A stretch of 64,000 nucleotides of DNA from an uncultured Elusimicrobia bacterium (GTDB taxonomy: Bacteria > Elusimicrobiota > Elusimicrobia > UBA1565 > UBA9628): contig CAZEAE010000003.1 in the NCBI GenBank assembly GCA_964510095.1, positions 12,462-76,461 of the forward strand, in the 5' to 3' direction. Made by a program: the position numbers and the translations under genes. This document shows, piece after piece, positions 12,316 through 56,057 of this stretch (position 1 is the stretch's first letter; every line of letters begins with the position of its first letter). The notes below the pieces were generated by a model. It was given only the letters and a program-made list of their open reading frames with translations, had not been told where the DNA came from and searched no databases.

Positions 12316-12330
12316 GGCGTCTGCAAGCGC

Positions 12331-12873: not shown

Positions 12874-13146
12874 GCCCGCTCCTTTAGAGTCCCGTTAAGA
12901 TGGTCGCCGCTAGAGCGAGATTTAAGCACTTTACGCTATGGCTGTCAACGAAACTAGGTGCAATAACCATTACGATTCGATTGACTCTTAAGGAAAAAAT
13001 AGATATTATGAAGAATAACGCCGTTGCGGCGGCGGCGGCGCTCAAAAGCCGCCCTGTCGACATGCCTCTAATTGTTGGTCTGGAAAAACACATATTTCTC
13101 TTATTATTTTTAAGTAATTTGGGTTATGCACACCTGTGGATAACCT
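12874..13146. promoter_or_regulatory. oriC: oriC segment 1: AT-rich unwinding region and DnaA boxes upstream of dnaA; point where gene orientation switches
   Basis: TGTGGATAA at 13132..13140, one-mismatch boxes TTATGCACA 13121..13129 and TGTGAATAA 13144..13152; AT-rich run 13085..13125; all genes to the left are minus strand and dnaA-dnaN-gyrBA to the right are plus. Confidence 0.6.
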
Positions 13147-14499: not shown

Positions 14500-14650
14500 A
14501 AGAAACCGCTGTTAGGACGAATAACCCGCAATGCTGTGGATAATGGGGATAAGTAATCGAAGTTGTCCACAATCCGTTTTTTTGATGGCGGCAGGGAAGA
14601 CTCTCTTATCCACAACTCGGCGATGCTGATTAATAAGAGGATGAATTAGA
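14500..14650. promoter_or_regulatory. oriC: oriC segment 2: DnaA-box cluster between dnaA and dnaN
   Basis: TGTGGATAA 14525..14533, TTGTCCACA 14553..14561 (1 mismatch), perfect TTATCCACA 14606..14614, AT-rich tail. Confidence 0.55.
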
Positions 14651-15765
14651 ATGAAAATAATATGCAGTAAAGAAGACCTGGCTCAAGGAGTCCAAACCAT
14701 ACAGTCCGCGCTGTCTTCCCGGACGACCCTTCCCATACTTCTCAATTTCCTTCTAGAGACGGAAAATTCAAAAGTCAAAGTCATTTCGACCGATCTTGAG
14801 ATGGGCGTGAAGCATTATATCGGAGCGGCGGTGGAAAGCGACGGCGCCATCACTATCCCCGCTAAAAAATTCTCAGACATCCTCCATAGCCTCCCGGACG
14901 GGCAGGATGTGGAGCTTTCCGTCGATTCCGGAGATAAAATACAGCTTAAGTGCGGCCGTTCCCGGTTCGGTATCATAGGTGCGCCTAAATCGGAATATCC
15001 CGTCCTGCCTGATTTCAGCAAGGAGAACGCCTTTCAGGTCCCGGCCGGGGTCATCGGGGATATGGTCAAAAAAACCATCTTCGCCGCTTCTTCAGATGAG
15101 ACAAGACATGTGCTCAACGGCGTCTTCTGGTCCGCCAAGAAGGGAACCTTGGAGATGGTGGCCACCGACGGGCGCCGCCTAGCGGTCGTCGCCAAGAAGA
15201 TCGTCCCGAAGGAGAAGGATTTCTCCGTGATCGTGCCGACCAAGGTACTTTCGGAGCTTTTAAGGCTTTTCAGCTCCATGGATATAAAGAGCGACTCGAC
15301 CGAGCCGATGCTGGTCTCGGTCACCGATAACCAGATAACCTTCCAATTCAAGACGACGACTTTATTATCGCGCTTGGTCGGAGGAGCTTTCCCTAACTAC
15401 GAGCAGGTCATCCCGAGCAAGAAGGATATAGTCATACTCCTCAACACCAAAGACCTCATCGCCGTCACGAAGAGAGCCTCTCTTTGCGCCATCGACCGCG
15501 GCGGCTCGGTCAAGTACGTGCTTAAAAAGGGAACGCTGTTCGTCTCAGCCTCCAGCCAAAACCAGGAATTCAGCGAGGAGCTCCCGATCGAGTTCTCGGG
15601 AGATGAGTTCCAAGTCGCCTTCAATCCTCAATTCGTCATGGACGCCTTGAAGCATGTCGATGCCGAGAAGATGACCCTGGGGCTGACCACGCCGGTCAAT
15701 CCCGCGCTTATCGAGCCGGAGGGCAAGGGTGACTATAAATTCGTCATCATGCCTATGCGGATCTG

Positions 15766-15766
<1 letters not shown>
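14651..15766 (+). CDS. dnaN: DNA polymerase III beta sliding clamp
   Basis: MKIICSKEDL start, 371 aa three-domain clamp, canonical position after dnaA. Confidence 0.95.
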
Positions 15767-18698
<2,932 letters not shown>

Positions 18699-25361: not shown

Positions 25362-26334
25362 AAGGAACGACGGAAGGCTCGCTTTGTCCGGTCACGCCGG
25401 ACACGTTGCGCGCCGCGCCGCGCAGGTAGAGCCCGGCGCCGACCTTATCGGCGGGCAGGCTGAACAGGAAGGGCTGGCGGCGCTGCAGGCGCGTGATGCG
25501 CTCCCAATCCAGCTGGTCGCGGGAGCTTTCGACCCAGGCTTCGTCGATGTTCTCTCCCGACACCGAGAAGGACGCCACGTAGCGCTTGCCCGCCCTTTGG
25601 GCGCTGAACTCCGTGACCGCGATCTCCTCGGAGCCGGAGGGCACGAGCTTGATGGCAAGGGCCGGGTAGATGCTGTTGATCGGGGTTTCCAGGGCCGTGG
25701 CGGCGTTGCGCGGCGGCACGCCCGAGATCGAGTGGTTGTTCCAGGCGCGGGTCTCGCGCGGAGAAGAATCCTCGACGGGGGCGGCGGCCAGGATGGGCGC
25801 GCTCGAGGCTCGGACGAAGTGCTGCGTCGGCGACCAGACGATGAGGTAGTTGGGCTGCGAGAAGCTGACCATGGCGCGAGGCACCTCGGCCCAGAACCAG
25901 TCCGACCCGCCGACGCCTTCGAGGTAGGCATGAGCGTCGGGCTCCAAGGGCAGGTCGGAGGTCTCGGCAAGGAAGAAGCTCTGCTCAGCGGTGAAAGACG
26001 GCGTCTGCGACACGCCCATGTAGACCTTGCCTGCGATGAGCTCGCGCAGCCAGGGCTTGTCGACGTTGGGGCGGGTCTTGGCGCGGCCTATCTTCGCGCC
26101 GATGAAAGCCCTGGAGAAATCCCCCAGCGGCGCCGGCGGGAGCTTGATGATCCAGGCGTTGTTGAAGCCGATGAACCAGTTGGCATCAGAACCGCTATCG
26201 GCGAAGCGGCCGAAGTCGTTGATGCTGGCCGCCAGCGAAAGATAGGTCGGCAGGATCGTGCTTGTTGAGAACACGGGGGCTTCAAAGCCCCAACTGGTCC
26301 CCGCCAGGAAGATTGCTAAATACGAAAAAATCAT
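25351..26334 (-). CDS. hypothetical secreted protein
   Basis: N-terminal hydrophobic segment MIFSYLAIFLAGTSWG, no recognisable catalytic motifs. Confidence 0.35.
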   Translation of the reverse strand: MIFSYLAIFLAGTSWGFEAPVFSTSTILPTYLSLAASINDFGRFADSGSDANWFIGFNNAWIIKLPPAPLGDFSRAFIGAKIGRAKTRPNVDKPWLRELIAGKVYMGVSQTPSFTAEQSFFLAETSDLPLEPDAHAYLEGVGGSDWFWAEVPRAMVSFSQPNYLIVWSPTQHFVRASSAPILAAAPVEDSSPRETRAWNNHSISGVPPRNAATALETPINSIYPALAIKLVPSGSEEIAVTEFSAQRAGKRYVASFSVSGENIDEAWVESSRDQLDWERITRLQRRQPFLFSLPADKVGAGLYLRGAARNVSGVTGQSEPSVVPYGP

Positions 26335-27215
26335 TATTTTTTAAACATATTTACGATTTTATCAAAGTCCGTCAACGAGTAAAAATGGATCGTGATCTTG
26401 CCCTTGGTTGGATCCTTTTTCGTCCGGATGTCTACCTTGGTGCCCAAGACCTGCTGCAAGGCGCCCTCCAGGGCCTTGATATCGGCTGATTTCGGGGTTT
26501 GGGGTTTTATGGAAGGCAAGGGGGTTTCCAATCCTTCGCCAGCCTCGACCTTGCGGGCCAGGTCTTCGGTTTCACGCACCGAGAGGCGGCGTTCCTGGAC
26601 TATATCAAAAAGTCCTTTTCTTTCCAGCGGATTTTTAACAACAAGCAAGGCTCGGCCATGGCCTTCGCTGATCTGGCCGAACTCTAGGGCCTTCTGGATC
26701 TCGTCGGAAAGTTCGAGCAAGCGTAGTGTGTTGGAGATCACGGCCTTGGACTTTCCTACGATCTGGCCGAGTTCGGTCTGATTGATCGAGAACTCTTTCA
26801 TCAATCGAAGGAAGCCTAGCGCTTCTTCGATGGCATTAAGATCCTCTCGCTGGATGTTCTCGATAAGAGCCAAAGCCAAGCGCTCTTTGTCTGATTTCGG
26901 GTGTCGAACGATCACCTCGACTTCATCGAGGCCGGCGAGTTCGCAGGCGCGCAGACGGCGTTCTCCCGCGATGAGTTCATAGGAGTTGTCGCTCTTGTCG
27001 AAGGATACGAGGATGGGTTGGGCTAGTCCATGCTCCTTGATGGAGGCGGATAATTCGCTCAAGCGTTCCGGGTCGAAATGGCGTCGCGGCTGGAGGCGGT
27101 TCGGCCGGATCTTAGAGATAGAAATCAGTGACGTTTGTTCTTTTGGGGTGATCACCGAGGGCTTTGGGGCGACAGGAATGAGAGCATCAAGACCGCGGCC
27201 TAGGGCGTTTCTCAT
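26334..27215 (-). CDS. parB: chromosome partitioning protein ParB
   Basis: GERRLRA ParB box (LIAGERRLRACELAGL), HTH, 293 aa; overlaps parA stop. Confidence 0.9.
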   Translation of the reverse strand: MRNALGRGLDALIPVAPKPSVITPKEQTSLISISKIRPNRLQPRRHFDPERLSELSASIKEHGLAQPILVSFDKSDNSYELIAGERRLRACELAGLDEVEVIVRHPKSDKERLALALIENIQREDLNAIEEALGFLRLMKEFSINQTELGQIVGKSKAVISNTLRLLELSDEIQKALEFGQISEGHGRALLVVKNPLERKGLFDIVQERRLSVRETEDLARKVEAGEGLETPLPSIKPQTPKSADIKALEGALQQVLGTKVDIRTKKDPTKGKITIHFYSLTDFDKIVNMFKK

Positions 27216-28024
27216 GAGGGATTCTCCAGTGTGATGGTTTCCGTAGGTGCGGGCAGGTCGACGCCGCGGCGGGCAAGAAGCTCGCGAGCGAAGGCTGCAT
27301 AGGCTTCAGCTCCCTTGGATTTTGGGTCGTACTGAAATATGCTTTGACCGAACCCCGGCGCTTCGGCAATGCGGATGTTTCTGGGGATGATCGTGGAAAA
27401 CATTCGGGGTCCGAAAAACTTGCCGACCTCGTCTTTGACCTGATTAGAGAGCGTCATCCGGGCATCGAACATGGTAAGTACCCCCCCCTCTATCACTAGG
27501 TTAGGGTTGAGGGCTTGCTGAATCCGTTGGACCGCGTCTATGAACTGGGCCAATCCCTCCATGGCATAATATTCGCCCTGGATCGGTACGATGGTCTTGG
27601 ATGCGGCATTGAGAGCGTTGATCGTCAATAGGCCAAGAGAAGGCGGGCAGTCGATGATAATGTAGTCGAAGCGGTCCTTGATGCCGCTTAAGGCTCCCTT
27701 GAGCCTGCTTTCTCGGGCAAGCGCGGATACGAGTTCGACTTCTGCGCCGATCAGGTCTTGATTTGAGCCGGCAACGGACAAAAAAGAGAGCGCTGTCTCT
27801 TTGATGGTTTTTTCCAGAGGCATCAATTCAACGAGCACGTTGTAGATGTTCGGGGTAAAAGAACGCTTGTCAAAACCGAGGCCGGAGGTGGCGTTTCCTT
27901 GGGGATCCATGTCTATTAGCAATGTTCTTTTCCCGTGGCTGGCTAGGGCTGCGGCCAAATTGACGGCCGTTGTCGTTTTTCCCACCCCCCCTTTTTGATT
28001 CGCTATCGCAATTATTTCAGACAT
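27212..28024 (-). CDS. parA: chromosome partitioning ATPase ParA/Soj
   Basis: deviant Walker A NQKGGVGKTTTAVNLA, 270 aa. Confidence 0.9.
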   Translation of the reverse strand: MSEIIAIANQKGGVGKTTTAVNLAAALASHGKRTLLIDMDPQGNATSGLGFDKRSFTPNIYNVLVELMPLEKTIKETALSFLSVAGSNQDLIGAEVELVSALARESRLKGALSGIKDRFDYIIIDCPPSLGLLTINALNAASKTIVPIQGEYYAMEGLAQFIDAVQRIQQALNPNLVIEGGVLTMFDARMTLSNQVKDEVGKFFGPRMFSTIIPRNIRIAEAPGFGQSIFQYDPKSKGAEAYAAFARELLARRGVDLPAPTETITLENPS

Positions 28025-29636: not shown

Positions 29637-30098
29637 CTAGGCTTCGACGCGCTGGATCGCCTCGAAGATCTCGAGGGGCTCCGGCAGGTCGCGGAAATAC
29701 TCCAGGGTGATCGCGACGAAGCAGAGCTTGGCGCCTTGGCTCTGGGCATGGATCTCGCGGGACAGATAGATCCGCCCGAAAGGCGCGGCCTCCAGCAGCA
29801 GCTCCGCCGCCCTGGTGTCCGTGACGTGCAGGCCCATGCGGAGGAAGACGCGGTCGGGATCCTTCCGGGCGCCATTGTCCTTGGCGCAGCGCGCCTGCAG
29901 CGCCAGCGCGCAGGCCAAGGCGCTGGGGGCCAGGGGGAACTCGCAGACGGAGATCTCGCCGCAGGAGCGCACGAGCGCGCCGCCGTGCTTTCGCAGCAGG
30001 CCCTCGAGCACGAGGCTGGAGGCGTCGACGAAATCGACCTCGGGCGGGGGCTTCGTCCGTCCCGGGGTTCGGCTCGTCACCAAGAGGAATGCGGGCAT
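29637..30098 (-). CDS. degenerate class III nucleotidyl-cyclase homology domain (CHD) protein, 153 aa
   Basis: Start MPAFLLV (ATG 30098..30096) overlaps kinase stop (ATGA); VDFVDASS and SCGEISVCEF align to CHD metal-binding blocks; RMGLHVTDT; segment corresponding to the GxxVNxAxR block absent. Confidence 0.45.
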   Translation of the reverse strand: MPAFLLVTSRTPGRTKPPPEVDFVDASSLVLEGLLRKHGGALVRSCGEISVCEFPLAPSALACALALQARCAKDNGARKDPDRVFLRMGLHVTDTRAAELLLEAAPFGRIYLSREIHAQSQGAKLCFVAITLEYFRDLPEPLEIFEAIQRVEA

Positions 30099-31372
30099 CA
30101 GGCGGCTCCGATCGCTTTGGCGAATTCCGCGACCGATTGGAACCGATCTTCCGCCTTGAAGCTCATGCAGCGCTCCACCGCGCGGGAGAGCTCCGGAGGC
30201 ACCGAGGGCTCCAGGTCCGCCAGGGGTTTGAAGTCCTGTTTTTCCTTCTGTATGTAGAAGTTCGGCCCCGTGAAGGGCTGCTCGCCGCCCAGCAGCTCGT
30301 AGACGGTGGCGCCTAGGGCGAAGATGTCGGCGCGCAGGTCCGAGCGACCTCGCTCCTGCTCCGGCGCCATGTAGGCCAGCGTGCCGGAGGTGTCCAGCTT
30401 GGTCTTGGAAAGCCTTTCCGCCGTATCCTTGATCTGCCGGGCGACCCCGAAATCCATGACCTTCGCGTAACCGTGCTTGGTCAGCATGATGTTGGAGGGC
30501 TTGATGTCGCGGTGCACGACCTTGCAGGAGTGCGCGTAGGCCAGCGCTTCGCAGATGCATTTGAGCACCGGCTTGGCCTTTTCGGCGGGCATGACCCGTT
30601 TGGTATCCAGATATTCCTGCAGCGTTTTGCCGTCGACGTACTCGAAGATCAGATAGAGCTCAGCGCCCTCGTCTAGGATCGCGTAGATGTCGGCGATGAA
30701 GGGGTGGTGCAAAGACGCCGACAACTTGGCCTCCTTGAGGAACAGGGTCTTGTCGCGCCCGGCCAGCTTCAGCGCGGGCAGCATGCGTTTTATGGCCACG
30801 GGCCGGTCGAGCGAGTGGTCCCGGCCCTCGTAGACGATGCCCATGCCGCCGCTGCCGAGCTCGCGCTTCAGTTCATACTTGCCCGCCAGCCAGCCGGCCG
30901 GCTTGACCGGCGCCGCCGGTCCAGCGGGGACGGGCTTCTCCGGCGTCTTGGGAGCGACCAGCTCGAAGGTCCCGCCCTGCGCCGAGCAGCAGCGGGCGGT
31001 CTCGGCGAGCCATTCGTCGCGTTCGGCCAGCCTTTCCGGGGCGGCCGCCGTCCAGCTGTCGTCCCGAAAAAACAAGAGCAAGGTCTCAGGCGCCTTGTCC
31101 GGCAGGGCGACGGTCAGCAAGAGGCAGGGCTCTTGGTCCGGCGGCCCGGCTTTCAGGCGTACGATGGACGAAAGAGCGGCCTCATAAAGGACGGGCCCCG
31201 GCTCCTTCTCGCGCATGGCGGCCAGGTCGTAGTAGGCCGCGCAGAGCACCAGCCGCCGGTCGGTCAGGTATGAGTGGCAGAGCCGGCCGCTCAGGCCGCT
31301 TGCCGGCCTGAGGAAATGGCCGTTGGCGGCTTCTTTGACCAGGCTCTCGCCGTCGGCTAAGGGGATCACCAT
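30098..31372 (-). CDS. Hanks-type Ser/Thr protein kinase with N-terminal bacterial PH/GRAM-like domain
   Basis: VAIKRM Lys, VHRDIKPSNIML catalytic loop, MDFG, YMAPEQ; N-terminal 170 aa with LTDRRLVL bPH-like pattern; 7-nt overlap with upstream HD-GYP gene. Confidence 0.85.
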   Translation of the reverse strand: MVIPLADGESLVKEAANGHFLRPASGLSGRLCHSYLTDRRLVLCAAYYDLAAMREKEPGPVLYEAALSSIVRLKAGPPDQEPCLLLTVALPDKAPETLLLFFRDDSWTAAAPERLAERDEWLAETARCCSAQGGTFELVAPKTPEKPVPAGPAAPVKPAGWLAGKYELKRELGSGGMGIVYEGRDHSLDRPVAIKRMLPALKLAGRDKTLFLKEAKLSASLHHPFIADIYAILDEGAELYLIFEYVDGKTLQEYLDTKRVMPAEKAKPVLKCICEALAYAHSCKVVHRDIKPSNIMLTKHGYAKVMDFGVARQIKDTAERLSKTKLDTSGTLAYMAPEQERGRSDLRADIFALGATVYELLGGEQPFTGPNFYIQKEKQDFKPLADLEPSVPPELSRAVERCMSFKAEDRFQSVAEFAKAIGAA

Positions 31373-32448
31373 GCCGTCGAGCGGGAGGCGAGGAGGTCCA
31401 CGAAGGCTTTCACTACTTTAGGGTCGAAGCTCTTGCCGGCCCCGTCCTGGGCTTCCTGAAGGGCCTTCTGATGGAGGTCGCGGCCGCGCAAGCCGACCAT
31501 GCGCAGGTCCTCGACGGCCTCGACCAAGCTCAGGATGCGAGCGCCCAACGGGATGGCGTCACCCGCGAGCTTGTCTGGAAAGCCCGCGCCGTCGAACCTT
31601 TCATGATGATGCAGGATCAGAGGGACGGCCCCCTCCATCATCGTGATGCCCTCGAGCATCTTGGCGGACAAGGTCGGATGCAGCTCTTCGGAGGCCTTCA
31701 TGACGCCCATGTCGGCGAGGAACTCCGCGCTATTCATGGCGATGTAGCCGATGTCATGGAGCATGCCCGCGTAATAGAGCATGCGGTAGTCGTGGTCTTC
31801 GACGCCCAGCGATCGGCCGATAGCGCGGGCCAGCTTGGCCGAGCGCATGCAGTGGCCTTCCATGTTGGGGCGGGTCGTCTCCACCGCCAGGCAGAGCAGG
31901 TCCAGGCCATGGGTCAGGAAGTTGTTCTGCTCGGCGTTGGTCTTGGTGTGCGAGATGCTGGCGGCGGCAAAAGAAGCCATGTGGGTGAGCAGGTCGACGT
32001 GCTCCTGGGTGTAGCTGCCGGAGCGGCGGTTGAGCACCTCGACGACGCCGATGAGCTCGTCGCGGAAGACCATCGGCACGCAGAGGGCGGAGCGGGTCAC
32101 GAAGCCCGTCTTGCGGTCGAAATCGGCGGCGAAATGCGGGTCCTTCCGGGTGTCTTCGACCACCTCGGGCTTGCCGCTCTGGGCCACCCAGCCGGCGATG
32201 CCCTGCCCGAGGGGAAGGCGCATGGTCTTGAGGCTTTGCCCTTTCTCGCCGGAGGCGACCTTGAAGAAGAGGTGCTGCTTGTCGTCGGTGACCAGCATGA
32301 TGGCGCTGGCCTCGCTGTCGAGCAGCTGTTCGGCGGCGGTGCCGATCTTCTGCAGGAGGAAGTCCAGGTCGACGGCGGAGTTCAGGCTGCCGGCGATGGA
32401 GAAAAGACCAAGCGCTTTCTTGACGTCGGCTTCCCCGTTGACGCTCAC
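31366..32448 (-). CDS. GAF domain - HD-GYP phosphodiesterase (GFP variant of GYP motif)
   Basis: N-terminal GAF, HD motif MLHDIGY, HHERFDGAGFP downstream motif; start abuts pilB-like stop with zero spacer. Confidence 0.8.
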   Translation of the reverse strand: MSVNGEADVKKALGLFSIAGSLNSAVDLDFLLQKIGTAAEQLLDSEASAIMLVTDDKQHLFFKVASGEKGQSLKTMRLPLGQGIAGWVAQSGKPEVVEDTRKDPHFAADFDRKTGFVTRSALCVPMVFRDELIGVVEVLNRRSGSYTQEHVDLLTHMASFAAASISHTKTNAEQNNFLTHGLDLLCLAVETTRPNMEGHCMRSAKLARAIGRSLGVEDHDYRMLYYAGMLHDIGYIAMNSAEFLADMGVMKASEELHPTLSAKMLEGITMMEGAVPLILHHHERFDGAGFPDKLAGDAIPLGARILSLVEAVEDLRMVGLRGRDLHQKALQEAQDGAGKSFDPKVVKAFVDLLASRSTAW

Positions 32449-34234
<1,786 letters not shown>

Positions 34235-34245
<11 letters not shown>

Positions 34246-34798
34246 GGGGGGAAACCTTGTAGACCTTGGTCATCTTGGCCACCCCTTTGAGCTGCAGGGG
34301 GTCGACCTCGGCGCAGGCGACCTCGGCCTTGCTCATGGAGAGGTAGACGGCCTCGGTGAAGAACACCTCGCCGGGCGCGGCCAGATTGCCGAGCTGGGCC
34401 GTGATGCTGACCGGTTCGCCGAAGATGTCTCCGTCGGTCAGATGGATCTCGCCCATGTTGACGGCGATGCGGATCTCGATGCGCTCCGCCTCGGGCCGGT
34501 AGGAGTTATAGCGCGCCAGGGCGTCTTGGGCCGCGGCCGCGCCCAGCACGGCGTTGGTGGGGCTGTCGAAGACGAGCAGGTAGGCTTCCCCGATCGTGTT
34601 GATGAGCTTTCCGCCGCGGCTCTGCAGCACCGGCAGGACGATCTGTTTCTGCTTTTCGAGCAGGGAAAGCAGGGCGGCCCGGCTGATCTGATTGGTCTTC
34701 TTCGTGAAGTCCTTGATATCCGTGCGCATGATCGTCAGGACTCGGGTATCGCTGCTGTTCATCAGGAGCAGGATAGCCCCGCTTGAGTCGCCTGTCAA
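34235..34798 (-). CDS. class III nucleotidyl-cyclase homology domain protein, 187 aa, non-canonical active site
   Basis: TDIKDFT, GGKLINTIGEAYLLVF, RIEIRIAVNMGEIHLTDGDIFGEPVSITAQL, LKGVAKMTKVYKV align to CHD blocks; second metal Asp appears as Glu; Asn/Arg of the VNxAxR block appear as Ser/Gln; overlaps ATPase start. Confidence 0.55.
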
Positions 34799-35358
34799 GC
34801 GTTAGGCTGGGTCGGCAGGGGGCAGGCCGGGGCGTAGCAGCGGGAGATCGCCAGGCTGGCCAGCGTCCAGCCGGCCACGGCATCGACGACATACAGGAAG
34901 GCGAAGCCGAACGGGAACTTCCACCAGACGAAGTTAGACATCTGGCCCAGCACTCCGACGCAGATGCCGAAGAAAGCGCCGTACAAGGCGGCGTCCTTGA
35001 GGGTCAGGCCGGGGATCTTGCCCAGGATCCAGGTCCAAAAGAAGGCGCCCACCGTCTGGATGAGCAGGCCTAAGGCCATCGTCTTGCCCATGGAGCCCCA
35101 GCCGGCCTTGTGATAGGACAGGAATAGGAACGGGTCGGTCGGCGCGGTCTTGCCTGAGGGGTCGTTGGCCAACAGGTAGACGCCGCCTTGCAGGGCGGAG
35201 GCTTCGAGGCTGTGCACGAGGGGCGCGGCGTCCGGGAGTTGGGCAACGCTCCTATTATGGAAAGGCAGCGCCATCCAAGACAGGGCCTGCCAGACGAAGA
35301 CGATCAACCCGCCGACGACGGCGCCTTTCCATGGCGAAAGGCAGCGGTGTTCGATCAT
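34795..35358 (-). CDS. small integral membrane protein (4 predicted TM), unknown function
   Basis: start at MIEHRC overlapping arginase-family stop; stop overlaps CHD gene start. Confidence 0.4.
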   Translation of the reverse strand: MIEHRCLSPWKGAVVGGLIVFVWQALSWMALPFHNRSVAQLPDAAPLVHSLEASALQGGVYLLANDPSGKTAPTDPFLFLSYHKAGWGSMGKTMALGLLIQTVGAFFWTWILGKIPGLTLKDAALYGAFFGICVGVLGQMSNFVWWKFPFGFAFLYVVDAVAGWTLASLAISRCYAPACPLPTQPNA

Positions 35359-36410
35359 GCGGCGTCCCGCGTCTTGGCCAGGCCTTGGCTGGCCAAGGCC
35401 CAACCGGTCATCTTGTAGAGGAGCCGCGCGCCGACATTGGCGTCCCACTCGTTCTTGCCGGCGGGGTCAGGAGCCACTTCGTTGAGGTCGAACCCGACGA
35501 TCCGCCGCCCAGAGCGCGCGACGGCTCCCAGGACGTGGTTGGCTTCGGAGAACTCCAGGCCGCCGGGCACCGGCGTGCCGGTGTGGGGGCAGAAGCGCGG
35601 GTCCAGGCCGTCGATGTCGAAGGTGACCCAGACGTCCTTGGGCAGGGCTTCCGCTATCTCTTGGGCTACCGCGTCGAACGGCTCGCCGGCGAAGCGCCGC
35701 CGGGCCAGGTCGCCGTCATAGAACACGGCGACCCGTTCTTCCTGGGCCGCGCAGAAAGCGGCTTCCTGTTCGGAAAAATCCCTGATGCCCACCTGCACGA
35801 GCTTGGCCACCGCCGGGAGGTCGTTTAAGACGTTGTAAAAGATGGAGGCATGCGACCAGGTGAAGCCTTCGTAGGCCGCTCGCGTGTCGTGATGGGCGTC
35901 GAAATGAAGGATCCCCATGCCGGGATGTCGTTTGGCCGCGGCTTTGATGGCGCCGTAGGGGGTGGAATGGTCGCCGCCGATGATGGCCGGTATCTTCCCG
36001 CTCTCATAGAGCCGCTCGGTCTCTTTCTCGACGTAGGCGTTGAGCCGGTCGCCGAGGCGGTTGACGAGGTCCAGCGCCTTGCGGGGGGATGGCTTTCCGG
36101 CCAGCAGCGCCTTGATCACGAGCTGGGCGGCCTTCTTGGCCTCTTTGTTCCAGGCCCGCACGGCGGGCGATTCGGGCAGCAGGAAGAGCCCCGGTTCGTA
36201 GGGCTTGAGCACGTCGAAATCATAGAGGTCGAGCTGGGCGCTGGCTTCCAGGATGGCGGAGGGGCCCATCGAGGTGCCGCCGCCGTAGGACGTCGTCGCC
36301 TCCCAGGGCACGGGCAGGTAGACGAGGGAGGCATCCTTCTCGGTGAAGGGAAGGCCGAAGATGCCGTCGGCGGCGGAGCCGGGCGCGGCGGGGTCGAAGC
36401 TCTTGGTCAC
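35355..36410 (-). CDS. ureohydrolase, arginase/agmatinase/formiminoglutamase family
   Basis: GGDHS and DAHHD Mn-binding motifs, VTFDIDGLDP, 351 aa. Confidence 0.75.
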   Translation of the reverse strand: MTKSFDPAAPGSAADGIFGLPFTEKDASLVYLPVPWEATTSYGGGTSMGPSAILEASAQLDLYDFDVLKPYEPGLFLLPESPAVRAWNKEAKKAAQLVIKALLAGKPSPRKALDLVNRLGDRLNAYVEKETERLYESGKIPAIIGGDHSTPYGAIKAAAKRHPGMGILHFDAHHDTRAAYEGFTWSHASIFYNVLNDLPAVAKLVQVGIRDFSEQEAAFCAAQEERVAVFYDGDLARRRFAGEPFDAVAQEIAEALPKDVWVTFDIDGLDPRFCPHTGTPVPGGLEFSEANHVLGAVARSGRRIVGFDLNEVAPDPAGKNEWDANVGARLLYKMTGWALASQGLAKTRDAA

Positions 36411-36431: not shown

Positions 36432-36803
36432 CTAGAGGGCGATGCGGATGTCGATGGCGTCATAGTCGACGCAGGGCGCGATGGCGCGGCGGGGGGACTT
36501 TTTGGCCTTGGGCAGCTTGACCAGGCCGTGCTTGTGGAGGATCTCGATGTCGCGCAGCACGCTGGGAAAGCCTCGGCCGAGAAGCTTGGCCAGGGCGTAG
36601 ACGCTCTGGGGCTTCTTCTCCTTGACGCAGCGCAGGATCTCGAGGCGCTTGGGCGTCAGGAAGTTGCGCATCACTTCGATGCTCGTGAAGGAGACGCCGT
36701 CGTGCCGCTTGAAGGGCAGGCGCTTTCGGGCGGCTTCGTAAGCCTCCTCGAATTCATCCATGGACTCTTCAAGACTCTTGATGCTGAATGAAACCACTTT
36801 CAT
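36432..36803 (-). CDS. winged-helix DNA-binding protein (antitoxin-like regulator)
   Basis: start at MKVVSF (ATGA overlap with upstream small gene); LTPKRLEILRCVKEKKPQSVYALAKLLGRGFPSVLRDIEILHKHGLV wHTH. Confidence 0.5.
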   Translation of the reverse strand: MKVVSFSIKSLEESMDEFEEAYEAARKRLPFKRHDGVSFTSIEVMRNFLTPKRLEILRCVKEKKPQSVYALAKLLGRGFPSVLRDIEILHKHGLVKLPKAKKSPRRAIAPCVDYDAIDIRIAL

Positions 36804-37102
36804 GTCAGGCCCTCTCGGTGAGCGCGCCACTGGGCGATATCCCTCAGGAAATCCAGCTTCAAGCTCGGGACACCGGGGAAAAGACCGGGGGACTCGAGGC
36901 CGTCGATGTGTTTGTGCGGTCCCTTCGGGTGGTGGTTGTCGTAGAGGATGGCCGGCTGGATCCATCCTGCTGGGATGAAGGCGAGCCGGTATTTGATCCC
37001 GTCTGGATATTTTTCGTTTGAAGGAACCCTCCAGATCACGATTTCGACGAGTCCTCCCTCCGGGAGGGACTTCTTCTCCCGAAAGACTAAGACGGCCTTC
37101 AC
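36800..37102 (-). CDS. small conserved-looking protein, 100 aa (toxin-like partner of the wHTH protein)
   Basis: VEIVIWRVPSNEKYPDGIKYRLAFIPAGW...HHPKGPHKHI; 4-nt overlap with downstream wHTH gene. Confidence 0.4.
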   Translation of the reverse strand: MKAVLVFREKKSLPEGGLVEIVIWRVPSNEKYPDGIKYRLAFIPAGWIQPAILYDNHHPKGPHKHIDGLESPGLFPGVPSLKLDFLRDIAQWRAHREGLT

Positions 37103-37233: not shown

Positions 37234-40200
37234 CTAAGCTTTCGGCAGCTCGTTCTTGATCAGGTCGAGGATGGCTTGCGGCGTGGCCACCTCGCCGTGG
37301 AGGGGGAACCCTTCCAGGCCGTGGGAGAGCGCCCTTTCCGCCGCCGCCAGGGAGGCTTGGTTCTTGAAGTACACGGTGATCTTCCAGGCGCCGCCCGTCT
37401 CTCGGGCCACGGCCTCGAGGGCTCCGGGCATCTTGCTCAGCATCTTCTTGCGGTTGCGCTCGATGGCGGTCGTCGCGTCGAGGAACCCGTTGAAGCGGCG
37501 GTCCAAGCGCTTCATCTCTTGGTAGCCGCGCACCGCTTGGTAGGCGTTGTAAGCTAAGAGGCCCAGGCCCAGCATCACCAGAACGGCGACGACGGCCCCG
37601 CTTAACGGCGCGGCCGCCAGGGACAGCCCGGCCAGGGCCATGCCGGCCATGCCGGTGGGCGCCTTGGTCTGGCCTTGCGCCGCCCAGAAGGCAACCTCGG
37701 TCTGGAACTCCGCCCCGAGCTCGGCAAGAGGCTTTTCTTCCAGGCCGTTCTCGCCCAGCAGTGCGCCCATGATGGCTTCCCCTTGGGGCGAGAGCCAGAA
37801 AACGGCGTCTTCGCCGAGCATGACGTAGCCTTCGGCGGCTTCCTTGGTGCCGTAGGAGATCAGCTTGTGGCCCGGCTTGTTGAGGACCTTGAGCGAGGAC
37901 CCGTCGGGCAGAGCGAAGACTTCAGTGAACTTGGCCGCCAGCTCGGGCTTCATCTCAAGGCTCAGGCCTTCCTCCGCCATGGCCTTCAGCGCGCGATCCC
38001 AGGAGTCCTGGGGTACCCGCGCGTCCTTGGGCAGAGCGACCTTGGCCGCCTTGGGCGCGGCGTCGATCAGCGAAGACATCGTCTCGTCCAAGGCCTTGGC
38101 GTAGCCGGAGAAGCCGTGGCGCAGGTCCTGGGCGGTGATCTCGTAGCGCACGTCCGGAGTGATCCCTAGATTCTCGATGGGCCAGCCGCCGGGGCGCTCG
38201 GCGAAGGTCCAGGTGTAGCTGAGCCCTGAGACGCCCTGTTGGTTGGGGAACTCCACTGATTTCACTGCGCCGCCGGCGCCGGAGGTGCGCATGCCGAAGA
38301 TGGTGGCGCGCTTGTTGTCCTGCAGGATGGCGGGGAAGAAGTCCGCGCAGGAAAAATCGAGCTCGTTGACGAGCACGACCAAGGGCTTGGTGTAGCGCAC
38401 CGCCGTGCTGGGGGAGATCTTGTCCAGGCCGAAGAGGGCGGTGGCGTTGGTCAGGCGGCGGCCGGCCTTGAGCTCGTCGAGGATGAACTGGGCGTAGCGG
38501 CCGACGCCGGCCATGGTCTCGGCCTCGTCTCCTTCGAGTCCGGCCATCTCCTCGCGGAGCGCGCTTTCCTCGGCCTCGTGGGTCTTGGCGGGGTCGAGCT
38601 GAGAGAGGACGTCGGCGGCCCAGACGGCGTCGTTCTCGTCGATGATCATGCGGTGCTTGGGCACGTCCAAGGGCTTGTCGGTGAGCATCGACAGGAGGGC
38701 GTACATGTAGAAGAGGCTGCCCCCGGGGTTGTTGACTTGGTCGAAGACGAGGCCGTCGGTTTTCTTTTGAAACATCGCGATGACCTTGGCGAACATCGCG
38801 GCGCCCTGCTCGTCTCCCATGTAGTCGGAGACGCGGATATAGCCGATCCTCTGGCCCTTGGCGTTCTTGTAGATGGCGGCCTTGAAGGGGAGCTGGGCGG
38901 CCAGCTCGGGCGGCGTCTCCCAGAGCACTTCGCCTAAAGCGGGCACGAAGCTGTTCTTGCCGCCGATGGAAAACCCGTTGTCGGCCTTGTCGGTGGCGCC
39001 CTTCTGGGGGCTGAGCATGTTGGGGAAAATGCGCCGGAGGGCCTTGCGGAAGGCTTCCTTGGCGACGGAATCGCCGGTGGGGAACTGCCAGAAATCGACG
39101 TTCTGCGCGCCGAGGCCGCCGTCGCGCACGGGGGTGTCTTGGGGTATGAGTTCTTCTTTATAGTCCCAGGTGAGCTTGGCGTCGTGGACGGCGCCGTCCT
39201 CGGTCTTGATCTTGAGCGCGATGTCTCCGGAGGGCACCGCGCCGCCGCTCTTGCGGGAACGCCCGGTCAGGCGCATCTCGGCCAAGCGGGCGTCGGTTTC
39301 CGCGACGTTGGGGATAGGCGAGAGGGCGGCGACGGCCTGGGCGGGGGTCTGGCCGCCGTACTCGACGATCTCATCGCCGGCCTGATAAGGGAAAGCGGCT
39401 TCGGGGAGTTTTTTGCGGTCGATGGCGGCGATGTAATAGCGGCCGTCGGCGGAGCGGATGGTCAGCGGCAGGGTGGCCTTCTCGGTCGTGGCGAACTGGA
39501 CGCCGGCGTGGTAGTCGCGCGTGGCGCCGACGAAGTCTGCGAGTATGCTCTGGAACTCGGCCTGCTTGATGTCGGGCTTGGCCAGGACCTTGGCGCGGGC
39601 CTTGTCGTATTCGGCCTTGAGGTTGACGCCCAGCTGCTTCTGCTTCCATTCGATGGGGGCGTAGTGCTGGAGGTAGATCGAAGCGACTTGGTCGAGGGTG
39701 CGCAGCATGAGGGTCTGCGCGGGGGTGGAGGGCTTGAGGTTGCTGTTGCTCGAAGCAGAGGTGTTTCCGGGGGTGCTGGGGGAAGAAGGGGGGAGCTCGG
39801 AAGCCTTGTCGCCCATGAGGAGCTTCTGGAGGTTGCCGCCGAGGCCGCTGGCGCTTTCGGAGCCGGCGTTCTTGATAGGACCGATGGCGTCGATGGCCTT
39901 CATGACCTCGCCGGTGATGCCTTGGGCCATGCCGCTGATGACGGAGAAGGGGTTGGCGGGCAAGGACGGGGTCAGGAGCACGGGAGCGGCGACGGCGCCC
40001 GAGGGTAGGACGATCGGGGCGAGGGAAGGCGTGAGGTTGAGCGAGGGCGTGAGCGCGGAGGGGGAGAGCGAGGGGGTGACGGAGAGGCCGCCGAGGGTGG
40101 CGGCCGGCTGAAGGAGGGGCGCGGGGCCGGAGAAGACGATGCGAGTCGGCGCGGTGCGCACGACGATGGGGGAGATCACGCTTCCGGCGGCCAGCGCGGG

Positions 40201-40272
40201 CGCTTGCAGCGCGACGAGCAGGGACAGGGAGGCGGCGATGGATTTTGCGGGGGTCGAGGGTTTCGGGTTCAT
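37234..40272 (-). CDS. large secreted S41-family (tail-specific/C-terminal processing) peptidase-like protein, 1012 aa
   Basis: signal peptide; S/T/P-rich linker; FDQVNNPGGSLFYMYALLSM and LVVLVNELDFSCADFF S41 blocks; hydrophobic segment near C-terminus followed by about 130-aa tail. Confidence 0.65.
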   Translation of the reverse strand: MNPKPSTPAKSIAASLSLLVALQAPALAAGSVISPIVVRTAPTRIVFSGPAPLLQPAATLGGLSVTPSLSPSALTPSLNLTPSLAPIVLPSGAVAAPVLLTPSLPANPFSVISGMAQGITGEVMKAIDAIGPIKNAGSESASGLGGNLQKLLMGDKASELPPSSPSTPGNTSASSNSNLKPSTPAQTLMLRTLDQVASIYLQHYAPIEWKQKQLGVNLKAEYDKARAKVLAKPDIKQAEFQSILADFVGATRDYHAGVQFATTEKATLPLTIRSADGRYYIAAIDRKKLPEAAFPYQAGDEIVEYGGQTPAQAVAALSPIPNVAETDARLAEMRLTGRSRKSGGAVPSGDIALKIKTEDGAVHDAKLTWDYKEELIPQDTPVRDGGLGAQNVDFWQFPTGDSVAKEAFRKALRRIFPNMLSPQKGATDKADNGFSIGGKNSFVPALGEVLWETPPELAAQLPFKAAIYKNAKGQRIGYIRVSDYMGDEQGAAMFAKVIAMFQKKTDGLVFDQVNNPGGSLFYMYALLSMLTDKPLDVPKHRMIIDENDAVWAADVLSQLDPAKTHEAEESALREEMAGLEGDEAETMAGVGRYAQFILDELKAGRRLTNATALFGLDKISPSTAVRYTKPLVVLVNELDFSCADFFPAILQDNKRATIFGMRTSGAGGAVKSVEFPNQQGVSGLSYTWTFAERPGGWPIENLGITPDVRYEITAQDLRHGFSGYAKALDETMSSLIDAAPKAAKVALPKDARVPQDSWDRALKAMAEEGLSLEMKPELAAKFTEVFALPDGSSLKVLNKPGHKLISYGTKEAAEGYVMLGEDAVFWLSPQGEAIMGALLGENGLEEKPLAELGAEFQTEVAFWAAQGQTKAPTGMAGMALAGLSLAAAPLSGAVVAVLVMLGLGLLAYNAYQAVRGYQEMKRLDRRFNGFLDATTAIERNRKKMLSKMPGALEAVARETGGAWKITVYFKNQASLAAAERALSHGLEGFPLHGEVATPQAILDLIKNELPKA

Positions 40273-40444: not shown

Positions 40445-40714
40445 ATGGACTGGAAGATCATGATGACCGCGTTCGGGACCTTGTTCCTCGCCGAGATGGG
40501 GGACAAGACCCAGCTTGCCGTCATCACGCTCTGCGCCTCGTCCAAGAGCCCGGCTTCCGTGTTCGCCGGCGCCGCGATGGCCCTGGTCCTGGTGACGGCG
40601 CTGGGGGTCTTGTTCGGCAGAGGGGTCGTCGCCCTGATCCCGGAGGCGGTCTTGAACCGGATCGCAGCCACGGCCTTCATCGCCATCGGCGCGATGATGT
40701 GGATCCGCCCCTAG
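40445..40714 (+). CDS. UPF0016/GDT1-family single-repeat membrane protein
   Basis: EMGDKTQ signature (E-x-G-D-K-T), 3 TM, 89 aa from MDWKIMM. Confidence 0.6.
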   Translation: MDWKIMMTAFGTLFLAEMGDKTQLAVITLCASSKSPASVFAGAAMALVLVTALGVLFGRGVVALIPEAVLNRIAATAFIAIGAMMWIRP

Positions 40715-41565
40715 AAGAAGCCTTCCAGGAAATTCTCGACGAGGATCGGCAGGTCTTCCGCGTACCCGCCCTCCAGGACGGCGAAGCGCCTGAGCTTGGT
40801 CTGCGCGATCAGGCTCCCGATGCGCGTATAGCTCTGCTTGGTCAGCTTCAGCTGCGCGATCGGGTCTTCTTTATACGTGTCGAACCCCGCCGACACCGCC
40901 AGGACGTCCGGCTTGAAGTCCAGCATCAGCCTTAGCACCTCTTCAAGCTTTTTGAGATAAGGCCCTTCGTCGGTGCCCGGGGCCAGCGGATAGTTCCGGC
41001 AGTTGCCCACCGAGTCCAGGCCCGTGCCCGGATAGAGAGGGACTTGGTGCAGCGAGGCGAAGAAGTAGCCTTCCCGTCCCAGGGTCAGCTCCTGCGTCCC
41101 GTCGCCGTGGTGCACGTCGATGTCCAGGATGGCGATCCGGGCCGCCTGCTTCTCGACCTTCAGCTTTTCGCAAGCCAGCGCCGCGTTGTTGAAGTAGCAG
41201 AAGCCCGAGACGCGGTCCTTGCCCGCGTGGTGTCCCGGAGGGCGCATCAAGGAGAGCGCGGGCTCGCCGGCTGCGGCCGTCTTCGCCGCCGAGAGCGCGC
41301 CCGCCAGGCTGATCAGGGCGACCGGCACGATCCCCGGGTGCAAAGGCGTGTCCGGGTCCGAGTACGAGCCTTTCTGGAGCTTATGGAAGTGCTTCACCCC
41401 GTGAAGCAAGGCCACGTCGGAGCCCGTCGCTTCTTCCAGGGGCTTCTCGACCTTGTGGCCCGCCGAGATCAGCCGCGCATGGCTCCTGATGACGCGAAAC
41501 GGCGCCTCGGGATGTCCCGGGGCGCCGTAGGTCGCCGTGGCCAGGTCGCTGAAGACGCGGCCCAA
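40711..41565 (-). CDS. histone deacetylase-family amidohydrolase (acetoin utilisation AcuC / acetylpolyamine amidohydrolase type)
   Basis: DIDVHHGDGTQE zinc-binding signature, GFCYFNN, 284 aa. Confidence 0.85.
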   Translation of the reverse strand: MGRVFSDLATATYGAPGHPEAPFRVIRSHARLISAGHKVEKPLEEATGSDVALLHGVKHFHKLQKGSYSDPDTPLHPGIVPVALISLAGALSAAKTAAAGEPALSLMRPPGHHAGKDRVSGFCYFNNAALACEKLKVEKQAARIAILDIDVHHGDGTQELTLGREGYFFASLHQVPLYPGTGLDSVGNCRNYPLAPGTDEGPYLKKLEEVLRLMLDFKPDVLAVSAGFDTYKEDPIAQLKLTKQSYTRIGSLIAQTKLRRFAVLEGGYAEDLPILVENFLEGFF

Positions 41566-41567
41566 CT

Positions 41568-42632
41568 TTAGCGGGTCGCGACTGGTATCTTCGACTCTTC
41601 GTCGTTGAGCAGCGCGTTGAACTTGCGCGCCGTGCGCTTCTTCCAGCTGCCTTTATGGTAGCCGTAGGAGGCCAGGAGCGGCAGGGCCAGCGTCGCCTCC
41701 GAGAAGACCATCTGCTCGTAGACCGTGTCCACCTTGCCCCAGGAGCAGGCTTCGCGCAAGGTCGAGCCCGATAGCGCGCCGTCGCGCTCGTCGGCCACCG
41801 TGATCTGGATCGCGTACTTGTGCATCCGGGTATCGAGGCCGATCATCTCGGCTCCCACGGTGACGTCTTGCGCGAAGTTCTTGGGGACGCCGCCGCCGAT
41901 CATCAGCAGCCCGGTCTCCTTGCAATCGAGCTTCACGCGCACCAGCTCGCGGAAGTCCTTGGCCGAGTCCAGCGAGACGTGCGAGTCCGGGTTATGCCAC
42001 TGGTGGTGCAGCAGGCCGAAGCCGGCCGAGCAGTCGGAGAACGCCGGCACGAAGATCGGAACGCCCTTCTTGTAGGCCGCCAGGACCACCGAGTCCTTCA
42101 CCTTGCAGTTCTTGCCGGTCGCCAGGTACTTGCCCATCTCCTCGATGAACTCCCGGGAGGAGTAAGCGCGCGGCTTGAGCGTGCCTGCGATCTCGGAGGT
42201 GATGTTGTCCGTCTCCCCGAGGGAGTCCTCGTCGATGAAGGTGTCATAGATCCGGTCCACGCGCGCCGCGCGCAGCTCGTGGTCGTCGACCCACTTCGTT
42301 CCTTTATAATGCTTGTGCCCGACGGCCTCGAAGAAATCCTGGTCGACGATGTTGGCGCCGGTGGAGACGATCGCGTCGACCATGTTGTTCTGGACCATGT
42401 CGAAGACGATCTTCTTGAGGCCGGCCGAGAACAAGGAGCCCGCCAGGCACAGGATCACGCTGCAGTCGCGGTCGCCCAGCATGCGGTCGTAGATCTCGCT
42501 GGCGCGCGCCAGGTCCCGGGCCGAGAAGGCCATCTTGGACATGGCTTCGATCATGGAGACGGAATTGTGCTTCATGATGTCGAAATGCTCGATCGGGTCT
42601 TTCAAAAGCTCTGACTTCTTCATACTCGACAT
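41568..42632 (-). CDS. deoxyhypusine synthase-like protein (bacterial homospermidine synthase type)
   Basis: start at MSSMKK preceded by GGAGAAACA; DHS-family blocks (STGANIVDQDF, GGGVPKNF); 354 aa. Confidence 0.75.
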   Translation of the reverse strand: MSSMKKSELLKDPIEHFDIMKHNSVSMIEAMSKMAFSARDLARASEIYDRMLGDRDCSVILCLAGSLFSAGLKKIVFDMVQNNMVDAIVSTGANIVDQDFFEAVGHKHYKGTKWVDDHELRAARVDRIYDTFIDEDSLGETDNITSEIAGTLKPRAYSSREFIEEMGKYLATGKNCKVKDSVVLAAYKKGVPIFVPAFSDCSAGFGLLHHQWHNPDSHVSLDSAKDFRELVRVKLDCKETGLLMIGGGVPKNFAQDVTVGAEMIGLDTRMHKYAIQITVADERDGALSGSTLREACSWGKVDTVYEQMVFSEATLALPLLASYGYHKGSWKKRTARKFNALLNDEESKIPVATR

Positions 42633-55722: not shown

Positions 55723-55947
55723 CGCGCAGAGATCCTGGCGCCGCTGTCAGGCCAGGGGTCGCCGACTTCCCAGTGGCTGCGGGCTGCACACGCATCCATG
55801 TGGCCAAGTTGTGGCCAAGACCTTCAGGAAACCGTGCGAAAAGACGCGAAAGGTCGCGTAATGGCGGGAAGGCGGATTAAACGCTTGCTCATCGACAAGC
55901 AGCATTTCTCGACGGGCCGGAACTACACGCAAGAAGCGTGATAAGAC

Positions 55948-55989
55948 GTTATGAGCCGAGTGCTCTGACCAACTGAGCTACGGGCGCGT
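55948..55989. repeat. 42-bp direct repeat copy 2 (truncated tRNA-Met 5' half, attR-like)
   Basis: identical 42-mer; lacks the tRNA 3' half, so not a functional gene. Confidence 0.85.
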
Positions 55990-56057
55990 GGTAGGATTTT
56001 ACAACACTTTCTCGGGTCGCCGGGTCCTTCAGCGGTGGTGTCCCTCCTGCTCGAAGA

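Follow-up and report, generated by a model that had tools for sequence, protein, structure and literature searches.

Two putatively non-catalytic cyclase-homology-domain proteins bookend a kinase–ATPase–HD-GYP operon in Elusimicrobiota

What kind of proteins stand at the two ends of a signalling operon in the genome of an uncultured Elusimicrobia bacterium (GCA_964510095.1)? To address this question, we analysed a stretch of 64,000 nucleotides (nt) from contig CAZEAE010000003.1, referred to here as the window, whose minus strand carries five tightly packed open reading frames (ORFs) between 34798 and 29637. All five match the public gene calls of an identical contig (L010) from an Elusimicrobiota metagenome-assembled genome (MAG) from Hainich groundwater. 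Read in the coding direction, the cluster opens with CHD-1, a predicted stand-alone class III cyclase-homology domain (CHD; 34235–34762, minus strand, 175 amino acids [aa]; Pfam PF00211). It continues with a PilB/GspE-type secretion ATPase bearing an N-terminal MshEN/GSPII domain (32449–34245, minus strand, 598 aa; Pfam T2SSE and MshEN), a GAF plus HD-GYP phosphodiesterase-type protein (31366–32448, minus strand, 360 aa; Pfam GAF and HD_5), and a Ser/Thr protein kinase (30098–31372, minus strand, 424 aa; Pfam Pkinase). It closes with CHD-2, a predicted degenerate CHD without the β4-β5 hairpin (29637–30098, minus strand, 153 aa), recognised by profile–profile comparison and structure prediction. 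From CHD-1 to CHD-2, neighbouring genes first overlap by 11 nt, then abut directly, then overlap by 7 nt, and finally overlap by 1 nt (kinase stop codon and CHD-2 ATG); this is the junction pattern of a translationally coupled operon. Both CHD ORFs lie on the minus strand exactly where an initial annotation, made from the sequence alone, had put them, and its description of the pair as bookends holds, as they are the first and last genes of the five-gene cluster.

The same annotation had taken CHD-1 to be 187 aa long, reading it from a TTG codon at 34798, to which the ORF indeed extends. The start is most likely the ATG at 34762, which we prefer because the public gene call and the starts of homologues agree there, giving a protein of 175 aa. 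The TTG falls inside the stop codon of the upstream gene and also inside a −35-like hexamer. CHD-1 residues are numbered here from the ATG; adding 12 gives the numbering of the 187-aa version.

Do these proteins have the class III cyclase fold, and which catalytic residues do they carry? Judged from sequence comparison and structure prediction, CHD-1 clearly belongs to the class III CHDs. It matches Pfam Guanylate_cyc with an expectation value (E) of 5.6e-13 and 49.3 bits (cut-off 21.9) over profile positions 6–178 of 183, and a phmmer search against Protein Data Bank (PDB) sequences finds solved cyclases, with 3mr7 at E 2.6e-17 and the group of 3mr7, Ma1120, and Rv1900c spanning E 1e-17 to 1e-11. 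The AlphaFold2 (AF2) model has a mean predicted local distance difference test score (pLDDT) of 93.8 and contains a complete CHD, β4-β5 hairpin included. Its top Foldseek matches are Ma1120, 3mr7, Rv1900c, and CyaC, at E ~1e-14 (best 9e-15) and template-modelling (TM) scores of 0.8–0.9. For both window proteins, the closest matches in sequence and in structure are the minimal cyclases Ma1120, the Rv1900c (LipJ) CHD, and 3mr7, which have the same compact CHD of ~160–170 aa.

For the active site, we built an alignment of both proteins and their families together with two canonical relatives and two solved cyclases, and read seven key columns: the first metal-binding Asp, the substrate-binding Lys, the second metal-binding Asp, the purine-specifying Asp, the transition-state Asn and Arg, and the Lys that contacts the γ-phosphate. 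CHD-1 has D15, N55 at the Lys site, E59 at the second Asp site, D112, S119 at the Asn site, Q123 at the Arg site, and K159; its signature is therefore D-N-E-D-S-Q-K, where 3mr7 and all canonical relatives read D-K-D-D-N-R-K. Retained are the P-loop DIKDFT, D15/E59, D112, and K159. The blocks that the initial annotation singled out in CHD-1 agree with this alignment: TDIKDFT is the first metal site, TIGEAY the second with Asp replaced by Glu, and GEPVSITAQL the Asn/Arg block with Asn changed to Ser and Arg to Gln. The register of the alignment is supported by Ma1120, because its published Ala at the position of the transition-state Asn is reproduced. Ma1120 is an active cyclase with this Ala, keeping Lys, Asp, and Arg, and putting Asn back at the Ala position was detrimental (PMC4215837). 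The change of Asn to Ser taken alone is thus not decisive for CHD-1.

CHD-2 has no Pfam match at E ≤ 1 and no NCBIfam match, and its PDB phmmer matches, to Ma1120 and 3mr7, are weak (E ~1e-3). Though invisible to Pfam, it is a class III CHD according to profile comparison and its predicted structure. Alignment of CHD-2 with the CHD-1 family by hhalign runs over the full length with 99.6% probability (E 5.5e-24). Searched exhaustively against 1.84 billion representatives, a profile of the CHD-2 clade retrieves 3,898 proteins at E ≤ 1e-3; among the ten best matches that were scanned with Pfam, one is an ordinary CHD protein (P0043). The top Foldseek matches of its AF2 model (pLDDT 90.4) are all class III cyclases, with E 1.5e-9 and TM ~0.8. 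Helix α1 is missing from the model, as is the distal β4-β5 hairpin; this hairpin is the "dimerisation arm" of class III cyclases. What is absent from the protein is a segment of ~12–15 aa of that hairpin, including the purine-specifying Asp. The initial annotation had located the deletion elsewhere, proposing that some 18 aa with the Asn/Arg segment were gone; the helix in question is present at residues 95–104, with R/A and L at the two positions. Its candidate for the first metal site of CHD-2, VDFVDAS, sits in a low-confidence loop (residues 11–25). The β1 strand is formed by residues 3–10 (AFLLVTSR), and Thr8 occupies the Asp position in three independent alignments. SCGEIS, as proposed, is the second metal hairpin with Asp replaced by Glu. 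Altogether, CHD-2 reads T-R-E-(gap)-R-L-R at the seven key positions, with T8 at the first Asp site, R44 at the Lys site, E48 at the second Asp site, R96/A97 at the Asn site, L100/L101 at the Arg site, and R136 at the site of the γ-phosphate Lys.

The departure from working cyclases is therefore broad. Both metal-binding Asp residues, the Lys/Asp pair, and the Arg are kept in Ma1120, Rv1900c, and 3mr7. In CHD-1, four of the positions are occupied by N, E, S, and Q, and CHD-2 has none of the residues and no hairpin. Where the two metal-binding Asp residues are expected, CHD-1 has D15 and E59 and CHD-2 has T8 and E48; the substrate-specifying pair, Lys/Asp for ATP and of Glu/Cys type for GTP, corresponds to N55/D112 in CHD-1 and, in CHD-2, to R44 with the second position deleted; and the transition-state Asn/Arg pair on helix α4 corresponds to S119/Q123 and to R96/A97 plus L100/L101, respectively. 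Asn, Arg, and the second Asp are thus absent from both proteins, and the alignment bears out the suggestion that these are single-domain CHDs without the transition-state pair and candidate pseudo-cyclases. Neither protein offers the Lys, Asn, or Arg needed from a C2-like partner, and CHD-2 is also without the purine-specifying Asp. Because Lys, Asn, and Arg are missing from both, no homodimer or heterodimer of the two has a complete canonical site. A third CHD that might complement them was sought across the window, and hidden Markov models (HMMs) of both families match only the two ORFs already described. As for kinship, the two proteins had been called paralogous; this is right at the level of the superfamily and no closer, since they belong to different CHD families and give no BLASTP alignment. 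Of the initial reading as a whole, the CHD-1 blocks and the G-E hairpin stand, and the CHD-2 metal site, the deleted segment, and close paralogy do not.

What is the history of CHD-1? Its family is marked by the motif SPTNAVL and a canonical active site, and has members in Elusimicrobiota, Corallococcus, and metagenome contigs. The canonical relatives (P0004–P0027) are 36–59% identical to CHD-1 over the whole domain, all read D-K-D-D-N-R-K, and share with it the motifs SPTNAV, NxGEV, and AVYLSM. Many have a C-terminal extension, often hydrophobic, that CHD-1 has lost. The three whose surroundings we examined (P0004, P0006, and P0008) lie in unrelated genomic contexts and not beside the ATPase. 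Two further relatives are degenerate, and each is followed by an ATPase 83–87% identical to that of the window: P0002, 86% identical to CHD-1, reads D-N-E-G-S-Q-K, and P0003, 65% identical, reads D-N-E-D-N-Q-K and still has the hydrophobic C-terminal tail. The Lys-to-Asn, Asp-to-Glu, and Arg-to-Gln changes are common to all three degenerate proteins; the Asn-to-Ser change is confined to P0002 and the window CHD-1, and the Asp-to-Gly change at the purine site to P0002. In the metagenome contigs scanned with the degenerate CHD-1 clade, only relatives at 31–32% identity were found. As far as these comparisons tell, CHD-1 is a recent, lineage-specific recruit from a canonical cyclase family, and the nested pattern of substitutions indicates that its catalytic residues were lost stepwise after it had joined the operon.

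CHD-2 has a different background. Its nearest relatives (P0030–P0041) are 27–74% identical to it, with no Pfam match among those scanned, and other CHD-2-type proteins are likewise non-canonical at nearly all key positions. Residues specific to the family are conserved, among them HGG, ACALA-Q, GR, and, in most members, a basic residue at the former Asn site. Many CHD-2-type proteins (P0034, P0035, P0037–P0039, and P0041) carry a C-terminal multi-pass membrane domain of ~200 aa, absent from the window protein, with a conserved FWLGQ and other motifs and no Pfam match among those scanned (e.g., in the genes at L024:3392–4462 and L028:8001–9122). A word-indexed search with the family profile added one further protein. 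In the genome contigs scanned with the CHD-2 clade we found only distant ordinary CHDs, such as a 641-aa Armatimonadota protein (L012) in an unrelated context.

Is the neighbourhood of CHD-2 as constant as its family traits? In every lineage whose gene context was readable, seven in all (the window, L001, L002, L023, L024, L025–L027, and L028), the next gene downstream of an orthologous kinase is of the CHD-2 type, either translationally coupled to the kinase or no more than 3 nt away. The kinase orthologues are 54–60% identical over their full length in distant lineages, N-terminal domain included, and 80–81% identical over the stretch read in two close ones. L001 and L002 have the kinase followed by a CHD-2-type gene, and in L024 the kinase precedes a CHD-2-type gene with the membrane domain, the ATPase not being adjacent. 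In L023, the order is a canonical 215-aa CHD, the kinase, and a CHD-2-type gene. The remaining two lineages carry the larger set. Elusimicrobia GCA_003450735.1 (L025–L027) has the permuted order kinase, CHD-2 type, ATPase, and GAF–HD-GYP, and Elusimicrobia GCA_016194705.1 (L028) has ATPase, GAF–HD-GYP, kinase, and CHD-2 type with the membrane domain. Relative to the window, L025 and L028 are 75% identical in the ATPase, 64–67% in the HD-GYP protein, 54–56% in the kinase, and 28–31% in CHD-2. The conserved unit is thus the kinase plus a degenerate CHD, usually together with the ATPase and HD-GYP pair. Sequence comparison identifies CHD-2 as a member of an old, Pfam-invisible family of degenerate CHDs with a constant kinase partner. 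We found no account of this operon or of the CHD-2 family in the literature, and both the family and the module appear to be undescribed so far; non-catalytic CHDs as such are already known.

Two individual neighbourhoods have features of their own. The canonical CHD of L023 (L023:10–657), directly upstream of the kinase, reads VMDICGST, KGTGDGF, and GGAVNLAFRVE in its catalytic blocks and has a 20-aa insertion after helix α4; the L023 kinase thus stands between a predicted live cyclase on one side and a predicted dead one on the other. The gene that follows the permuted module in L025 (L025:11455–12189) encodes a 244-aa ion-channel protein (Ion_trans/Ion_trans_2), possibly an output of the module or an input to it.

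The ATPase matches Pfam T2SSE at 7e-114 and MshEN at 1e-15, the latter over residues 65–150 only, and NCBIfam PilB at 6.6e-158, which is under the equivalog cut-off. Its translation shows the Walker A motif GPTGSGKST and two CxxC pairs. The combination of MshEN and T2SSE is the architecture of the MshE/PilB-type ATPases regulated by cyclic di-GMP (c-di-GMP), and the ATPase gene adjoins an HD-GYP gene. Unlike in those ATPases, the c-di-GMP motif is degenerate: neither the window ATPase nor its orthologues in L025 and L028 match the tandem 24-residue pattern RLGxx(L/V/I)(L/V/I)xxG(L/V/I)(L/V/I)xxxxLxxxLxxQ in strict or relaxed form. Nor do the gene calls include any pilus or secretion gene within 20 kb of the operon. 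In the first ~60 residues of the ATPase (34066–34245, minus strand), the hydrophobic pattern of the four MshEN helices is kept and the Arg, Gly, and Gln of the c-di-GMP motif are not. Within this region, MAVKGLQRHK(T/S)VKEIL does not differ between orthologues whose overall identity is 75%. The sequence of this region suggests that the N-terminus has a ligand or partner other than c-di-GMP.

The GAF–HD-GYP protein matches Pfam GAF at 4e-19 and HD_5 at 4e-24, and its HD motif is present. Its HD-GYP signature (31597–31611, minus strand) reads HHHERFDGAGFP, with GYP changed to GFP; GFP also occurs in L028, and GYP in L025. The kinase matches Pfam Pkinase at 1.6e-50 over residues 166–411, and its motifs GSGGMG, VAIK, HRD, DFG, and APE are all intact. 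Its N-terminal ~130 aa (30983–31372, minus strand) have no Pfam match and no meaningful sequence match in the PDB, and are conserved in the full-length orthologues that we aligned (L023 and L024). By eye, the pattern LxDGE…GRLxxxYLTxxRLVxC in this domain resembles bacterial PH/GRAM-like domains.

Are the two CHD genes still under selection? The ratio of nonsynonymous to synonymous substitution rates (dN/dS; Nei–Gojobori method, two relatives per gene) is 0.25–0.52 for CHD-1 and 0.45–0.47 for CHD-2, compared with 0.14–0.28 for the ATPase, HD-GYP, and kinase genes. Both CHDs are under purifying selection, and it is weaker than in the neighbouring genes. Together with the kept gene order and the confident, compact structure models, this selection argues against decaying pseudogenes.

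How, then, might the two proteins function? We consider it probable, at roughly 0.6, that CHD-1 and CHD-2 are true CHD folds that are no longer canonical cyclases and that they belong, as regulatory subunits without catalysis, to a signalling module conserved in Elusimicrobiota. The fold, the state of the catalytic residues, the operon layout with its conservation, and the purifying selection are results of the present analysis, from which the loss of cyclase activity, physical pairing with the kinase or ATPase, and nucleotide sensing are inferred. CHD-2 would be the ancient component, with no plausible nucleotide-cyclase chemistry left. Because it is strictly adjacent to the kinase, it is most likely a docking or regulatory partner of the kinase or a kinase substrate, and the two proteins may form a complex. 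CHD-1 would have been recruited in one sub-lineage and would then have lost the substrate-binding Lys, the second metal-binding Asp (to Glu), the Arg, and later the Asn. Its retained P-loop, Asp15/Glu59, Asp112, and Lys159 are consistent with a protein that still binds a nucleotide–metal complex with little or no turnover. CHD-1 could then serve the PilB-like ATPase, to which it is translationally coupled, as a subunit that senses nucleotides or provides a scaffold. A bolder version of this proposal, which we regard as tentative and on balance doubtful, is that of an Elusimicrobiota-wide module in which an active kinase, its N-terminal domain being novel, has an obligatory partner in a hairpin-less pseudo-cyclase, at times anchored in the membrane, and in which this pair controls an orphan PilB-type ATPase, its c-di-GMP motif lost, together with the GAF–HD-GYP protein; CHD-1 would there be caught in the act of becoming a pseudoenzyme.

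Several observations weigh against a non-catalytic role. Glu can coordinate metal ions, Ma1120 is active without the Asn (PMC4215837), and four of the seven key residues are kept in CHD-1, which leaves room for weak or altered activity. A GAF domain and an HD-GYP phosphodiesterase in the same operon would suit a local nucleotide-cyclase source. A real cyclase can hold a comparable position, as the canonical CHD upstream of the L023 kinase shows. The dN/dS values of the CHD genes, being above those of their neighbours, are compatible with relaxed constraint. CHD-1 might accordingly still be an enzyme, a homodimeric cyclase of low activity or altered specificity that binds metals through Asp15 and Glu59 and relies on other residues where Lys, Asn, and Arg are missing, with a product that is passed to the GAF domain or removed by the HD-GYP protein. 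The retained DIKDFT P-loop and the D15, E59, D112, and K159 residues would fit such an enzyme, as would the high-confidence, complete CHD model with its hairpin, the purifying selection, the precedent of Ma1120—where Ala serves at the Asn site and restoring Asn is harmful (PMC4215837)—the GAF–HD-GYP neighbour, and the L023 arrangement. We nevertheless find it unlikely. Four of the six canonical catalytic residues have changed together solely in the sub-clade that joined the operon, and the other family members keep them; the Arg-to-Gln and Lys-to-Asn changes take away both positive charges that contact the substrate; and P0002 has also lost the purine-specifying Asp, which looks like ongoing decay of the site.

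An asymmetric, C1/C2-like heterodimer of CHD-1 and CHD-2, with one catalytic and one regulatory site, would explain why two different CHDs occur within one translationally coupled operon; CHD-1 has a C1-like metal dyad (D15/E59), and the loss of the β4-β5 hairpin from CHD-2 would suit asymmetric pairing. The partner in such a dimer must give Lys, Asp, Asn, and Arg, whereas the corresponding sites of CHD-2 are Arg44, a gap left by the deletion, R96/A97, and L100/L101, and CHD-1 is itself without three of the four. Moreover, L024, L025, and L028 have a CHD-2-type gene and the kinase without a CHD-1-type gene, so CHD-2 is independent of CHD-1, and we hold the heterodimer to be improbable. More improbable still is that one or both genes are functionless remnants on the way to becoming pseudogenes. 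That CHD-2 is 28–34% identical between lineages where the ATPase is 75% identical does speak of faster evolution than in its neighbours, in line with the higher dN/dS and with catalytic residues and the C-terminal tail having been lost progressively. Yet the ORFs are intact, gene order and translational coupling are kept across lineages down to ~30% identity, and dN/dS lies clearly under 1. The AF2 models are compact and of high confidence, and the family-specific residues named above are conserved, including the basic residue that most members have at the former Asn site. Least probable of all, in our estimate, is that the proteins belong to another branch or chemistry, either as GGDEF-type diguanylate cyclases or as Pycsar-type cyclases of phage defence that make cyclic CMP or cyclic UMP. 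The G-E in the β2-β3 hairpin superficially resembles GG(D/E)EF, the neighbours are of types linked to c-di-GMP (HD-GYP and MshEN), and the kinase matches generic models of defence-system kinases. Both models nonetheless have a CHD fold by Foldseek, where all 50 matches listed for the two are class III adenylyl or guanylyl cyclases, and no Pfam family is matched at E ≤ 1 except Guanylate_cyc, by CHD-1. The consensus of the CHD-1 family is IGDAF, so the Glu is a recent change from Asp; the fold search rules out the GGDEF reading. A Pycsar-like defence role was rejected because neither CHD matches a PADLOC model, and the neighbours are signalling genes.

How does a regulatory, non-catalytic role compare with known systems? 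Degenerate enzyme domains acting as regulators are well known among kinases, receiver domains, and GGDEF/EAL domains. In adenylyl cyclase (C1/C2) and soluble guanylyl cyclase (α/β), degenerate CHD subunits or sites are regulatory and the two CHDs complement each other into one complete site; CHD-1 and CHD-2 differ from these asymmetric eukaryotic cyclases in that they do not complement each other. Receptor guanylyl cyclases combine a dead kinase-like domain with an active cyclase, and the operon appears as their mirror image, with kinase motifs intact and a cyclase domain predicted to be dead. Bacterial non-catalytic examples of the class III cyclase fold are, to our knowledge, few and very recent. 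One is AdvA, a cell-division protein of Acinetobacter baumannii (bioRxiv 2026), whose CHD-like domain is without catalytic residues and without the dimerisation arm; no cyclase activity was detected for AdvA, and its role is structural or regulatory, so that a bacterial precedent exists (PMC13060281). As in this AdvA/PA4961 type, catalytic residues and dimerisation arm are absent from CHD-2, a likeness drawn from the published description (PMC13060281). CHD-1 keeps the β4-β5 hairpin, so only CHD-2 fits the type. The resemblance also has bounds: the AdvA domain is part of a transmembrane division protein and has an extra C-terminal helix and altered topology (PMC13060281), whereas proteins of the CHD-2 family are free-standing or fused to a different membrane domain and are paired with a kinase.

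Immediately upstream of CHD-1 lies a gene for a 187-aa membrane protein (34795–35358, minus strand), known from gene calls and with a weak DUF1761 match only. Its start overlaps the preceding arginase-family gene by 4 nt, a 32-nt gap separates it from the CHD-1 ATG, and its membership in the module is uncertain. One candidate explanation, that it is the split-off C-terminal membrane domain of the long CHD-2-type proteins, was rejected, as neither BLASTP nor HMM comparison found similarity. A CHD-1 homologue in L006 has, two genes upstream, a 187-aa gene without a Pfam match; no comparison of this gene with the window protein was made. The 32-nt gap holds a promoter-like site (TTGACA, 17 nt, TATCCT; 34770–34798, minus strand), which is possibly the operon promoter, its position alone being suggestive. 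It is the sole σ70-like match in 8.5 kb, where 0.7 are expected by chance, and so is not significant alone; terminator and promoter scans did no better than shuffled controls. Downstream of CHD-2, a convergent glutamine-synthetase gene ends with its stop codon 3 nt from that of CHD-2.

Farther out, a small overlapping gene pair with a toxin–antitoxin-type look (36432–37102, minus strand; Pfam TumE and HVO_A0114, a helix-turn-helix family), read from the L010 gene calls, sits just upstream of the arginase-family gene. Polyamine-type genes occur near the operon at 35355–36410 and 40711–42632 (both minus strand), comprising arginase/agmatinase-family, deoxyhypusine-synthase-like, and histone-deacetylase-family members. 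The canonical CHD-1 relative P0004 (L003) adjoins spermine-synthase and amine-oxidase genes, a polyamine parallel that may be coincidence. At 37234–40272 (minus strand) is a 1012-aa PDZ and S41 peptidase whose long N-terminal region is of low complexity and rich in Pro and Ser and whose C-terminal region matches no family. G+C content falls to 0.54–0.58 at 12001–16000, 26001–28000, and 54001–56000, against a window average of ~0.65, and the second of these segments covers parA/parB genes.

What would these proteins mean for Elusimicrobiota and for the class III cyclases? On the pseudo-cyclase reading, not every "adenylate cyclase" annotation in a MAG should be taken for a source of cyclic AMP. 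CHD-1 would offer a stepwise, datable case in which a cyclase, once recruited into an operon, lost its catalytic residues. CHD-2 would represent an unrecognised family of degenerate cyclase folds, missed by profile databases and always tied to one kinase. If it is true that the kinase–pseudo-cyclase pair controls the PilB-like motor ATPase and the HD-GYP protein, this would be a new regulatory input to pilus- and secretion-type ATPases in a poorly studied phylum.

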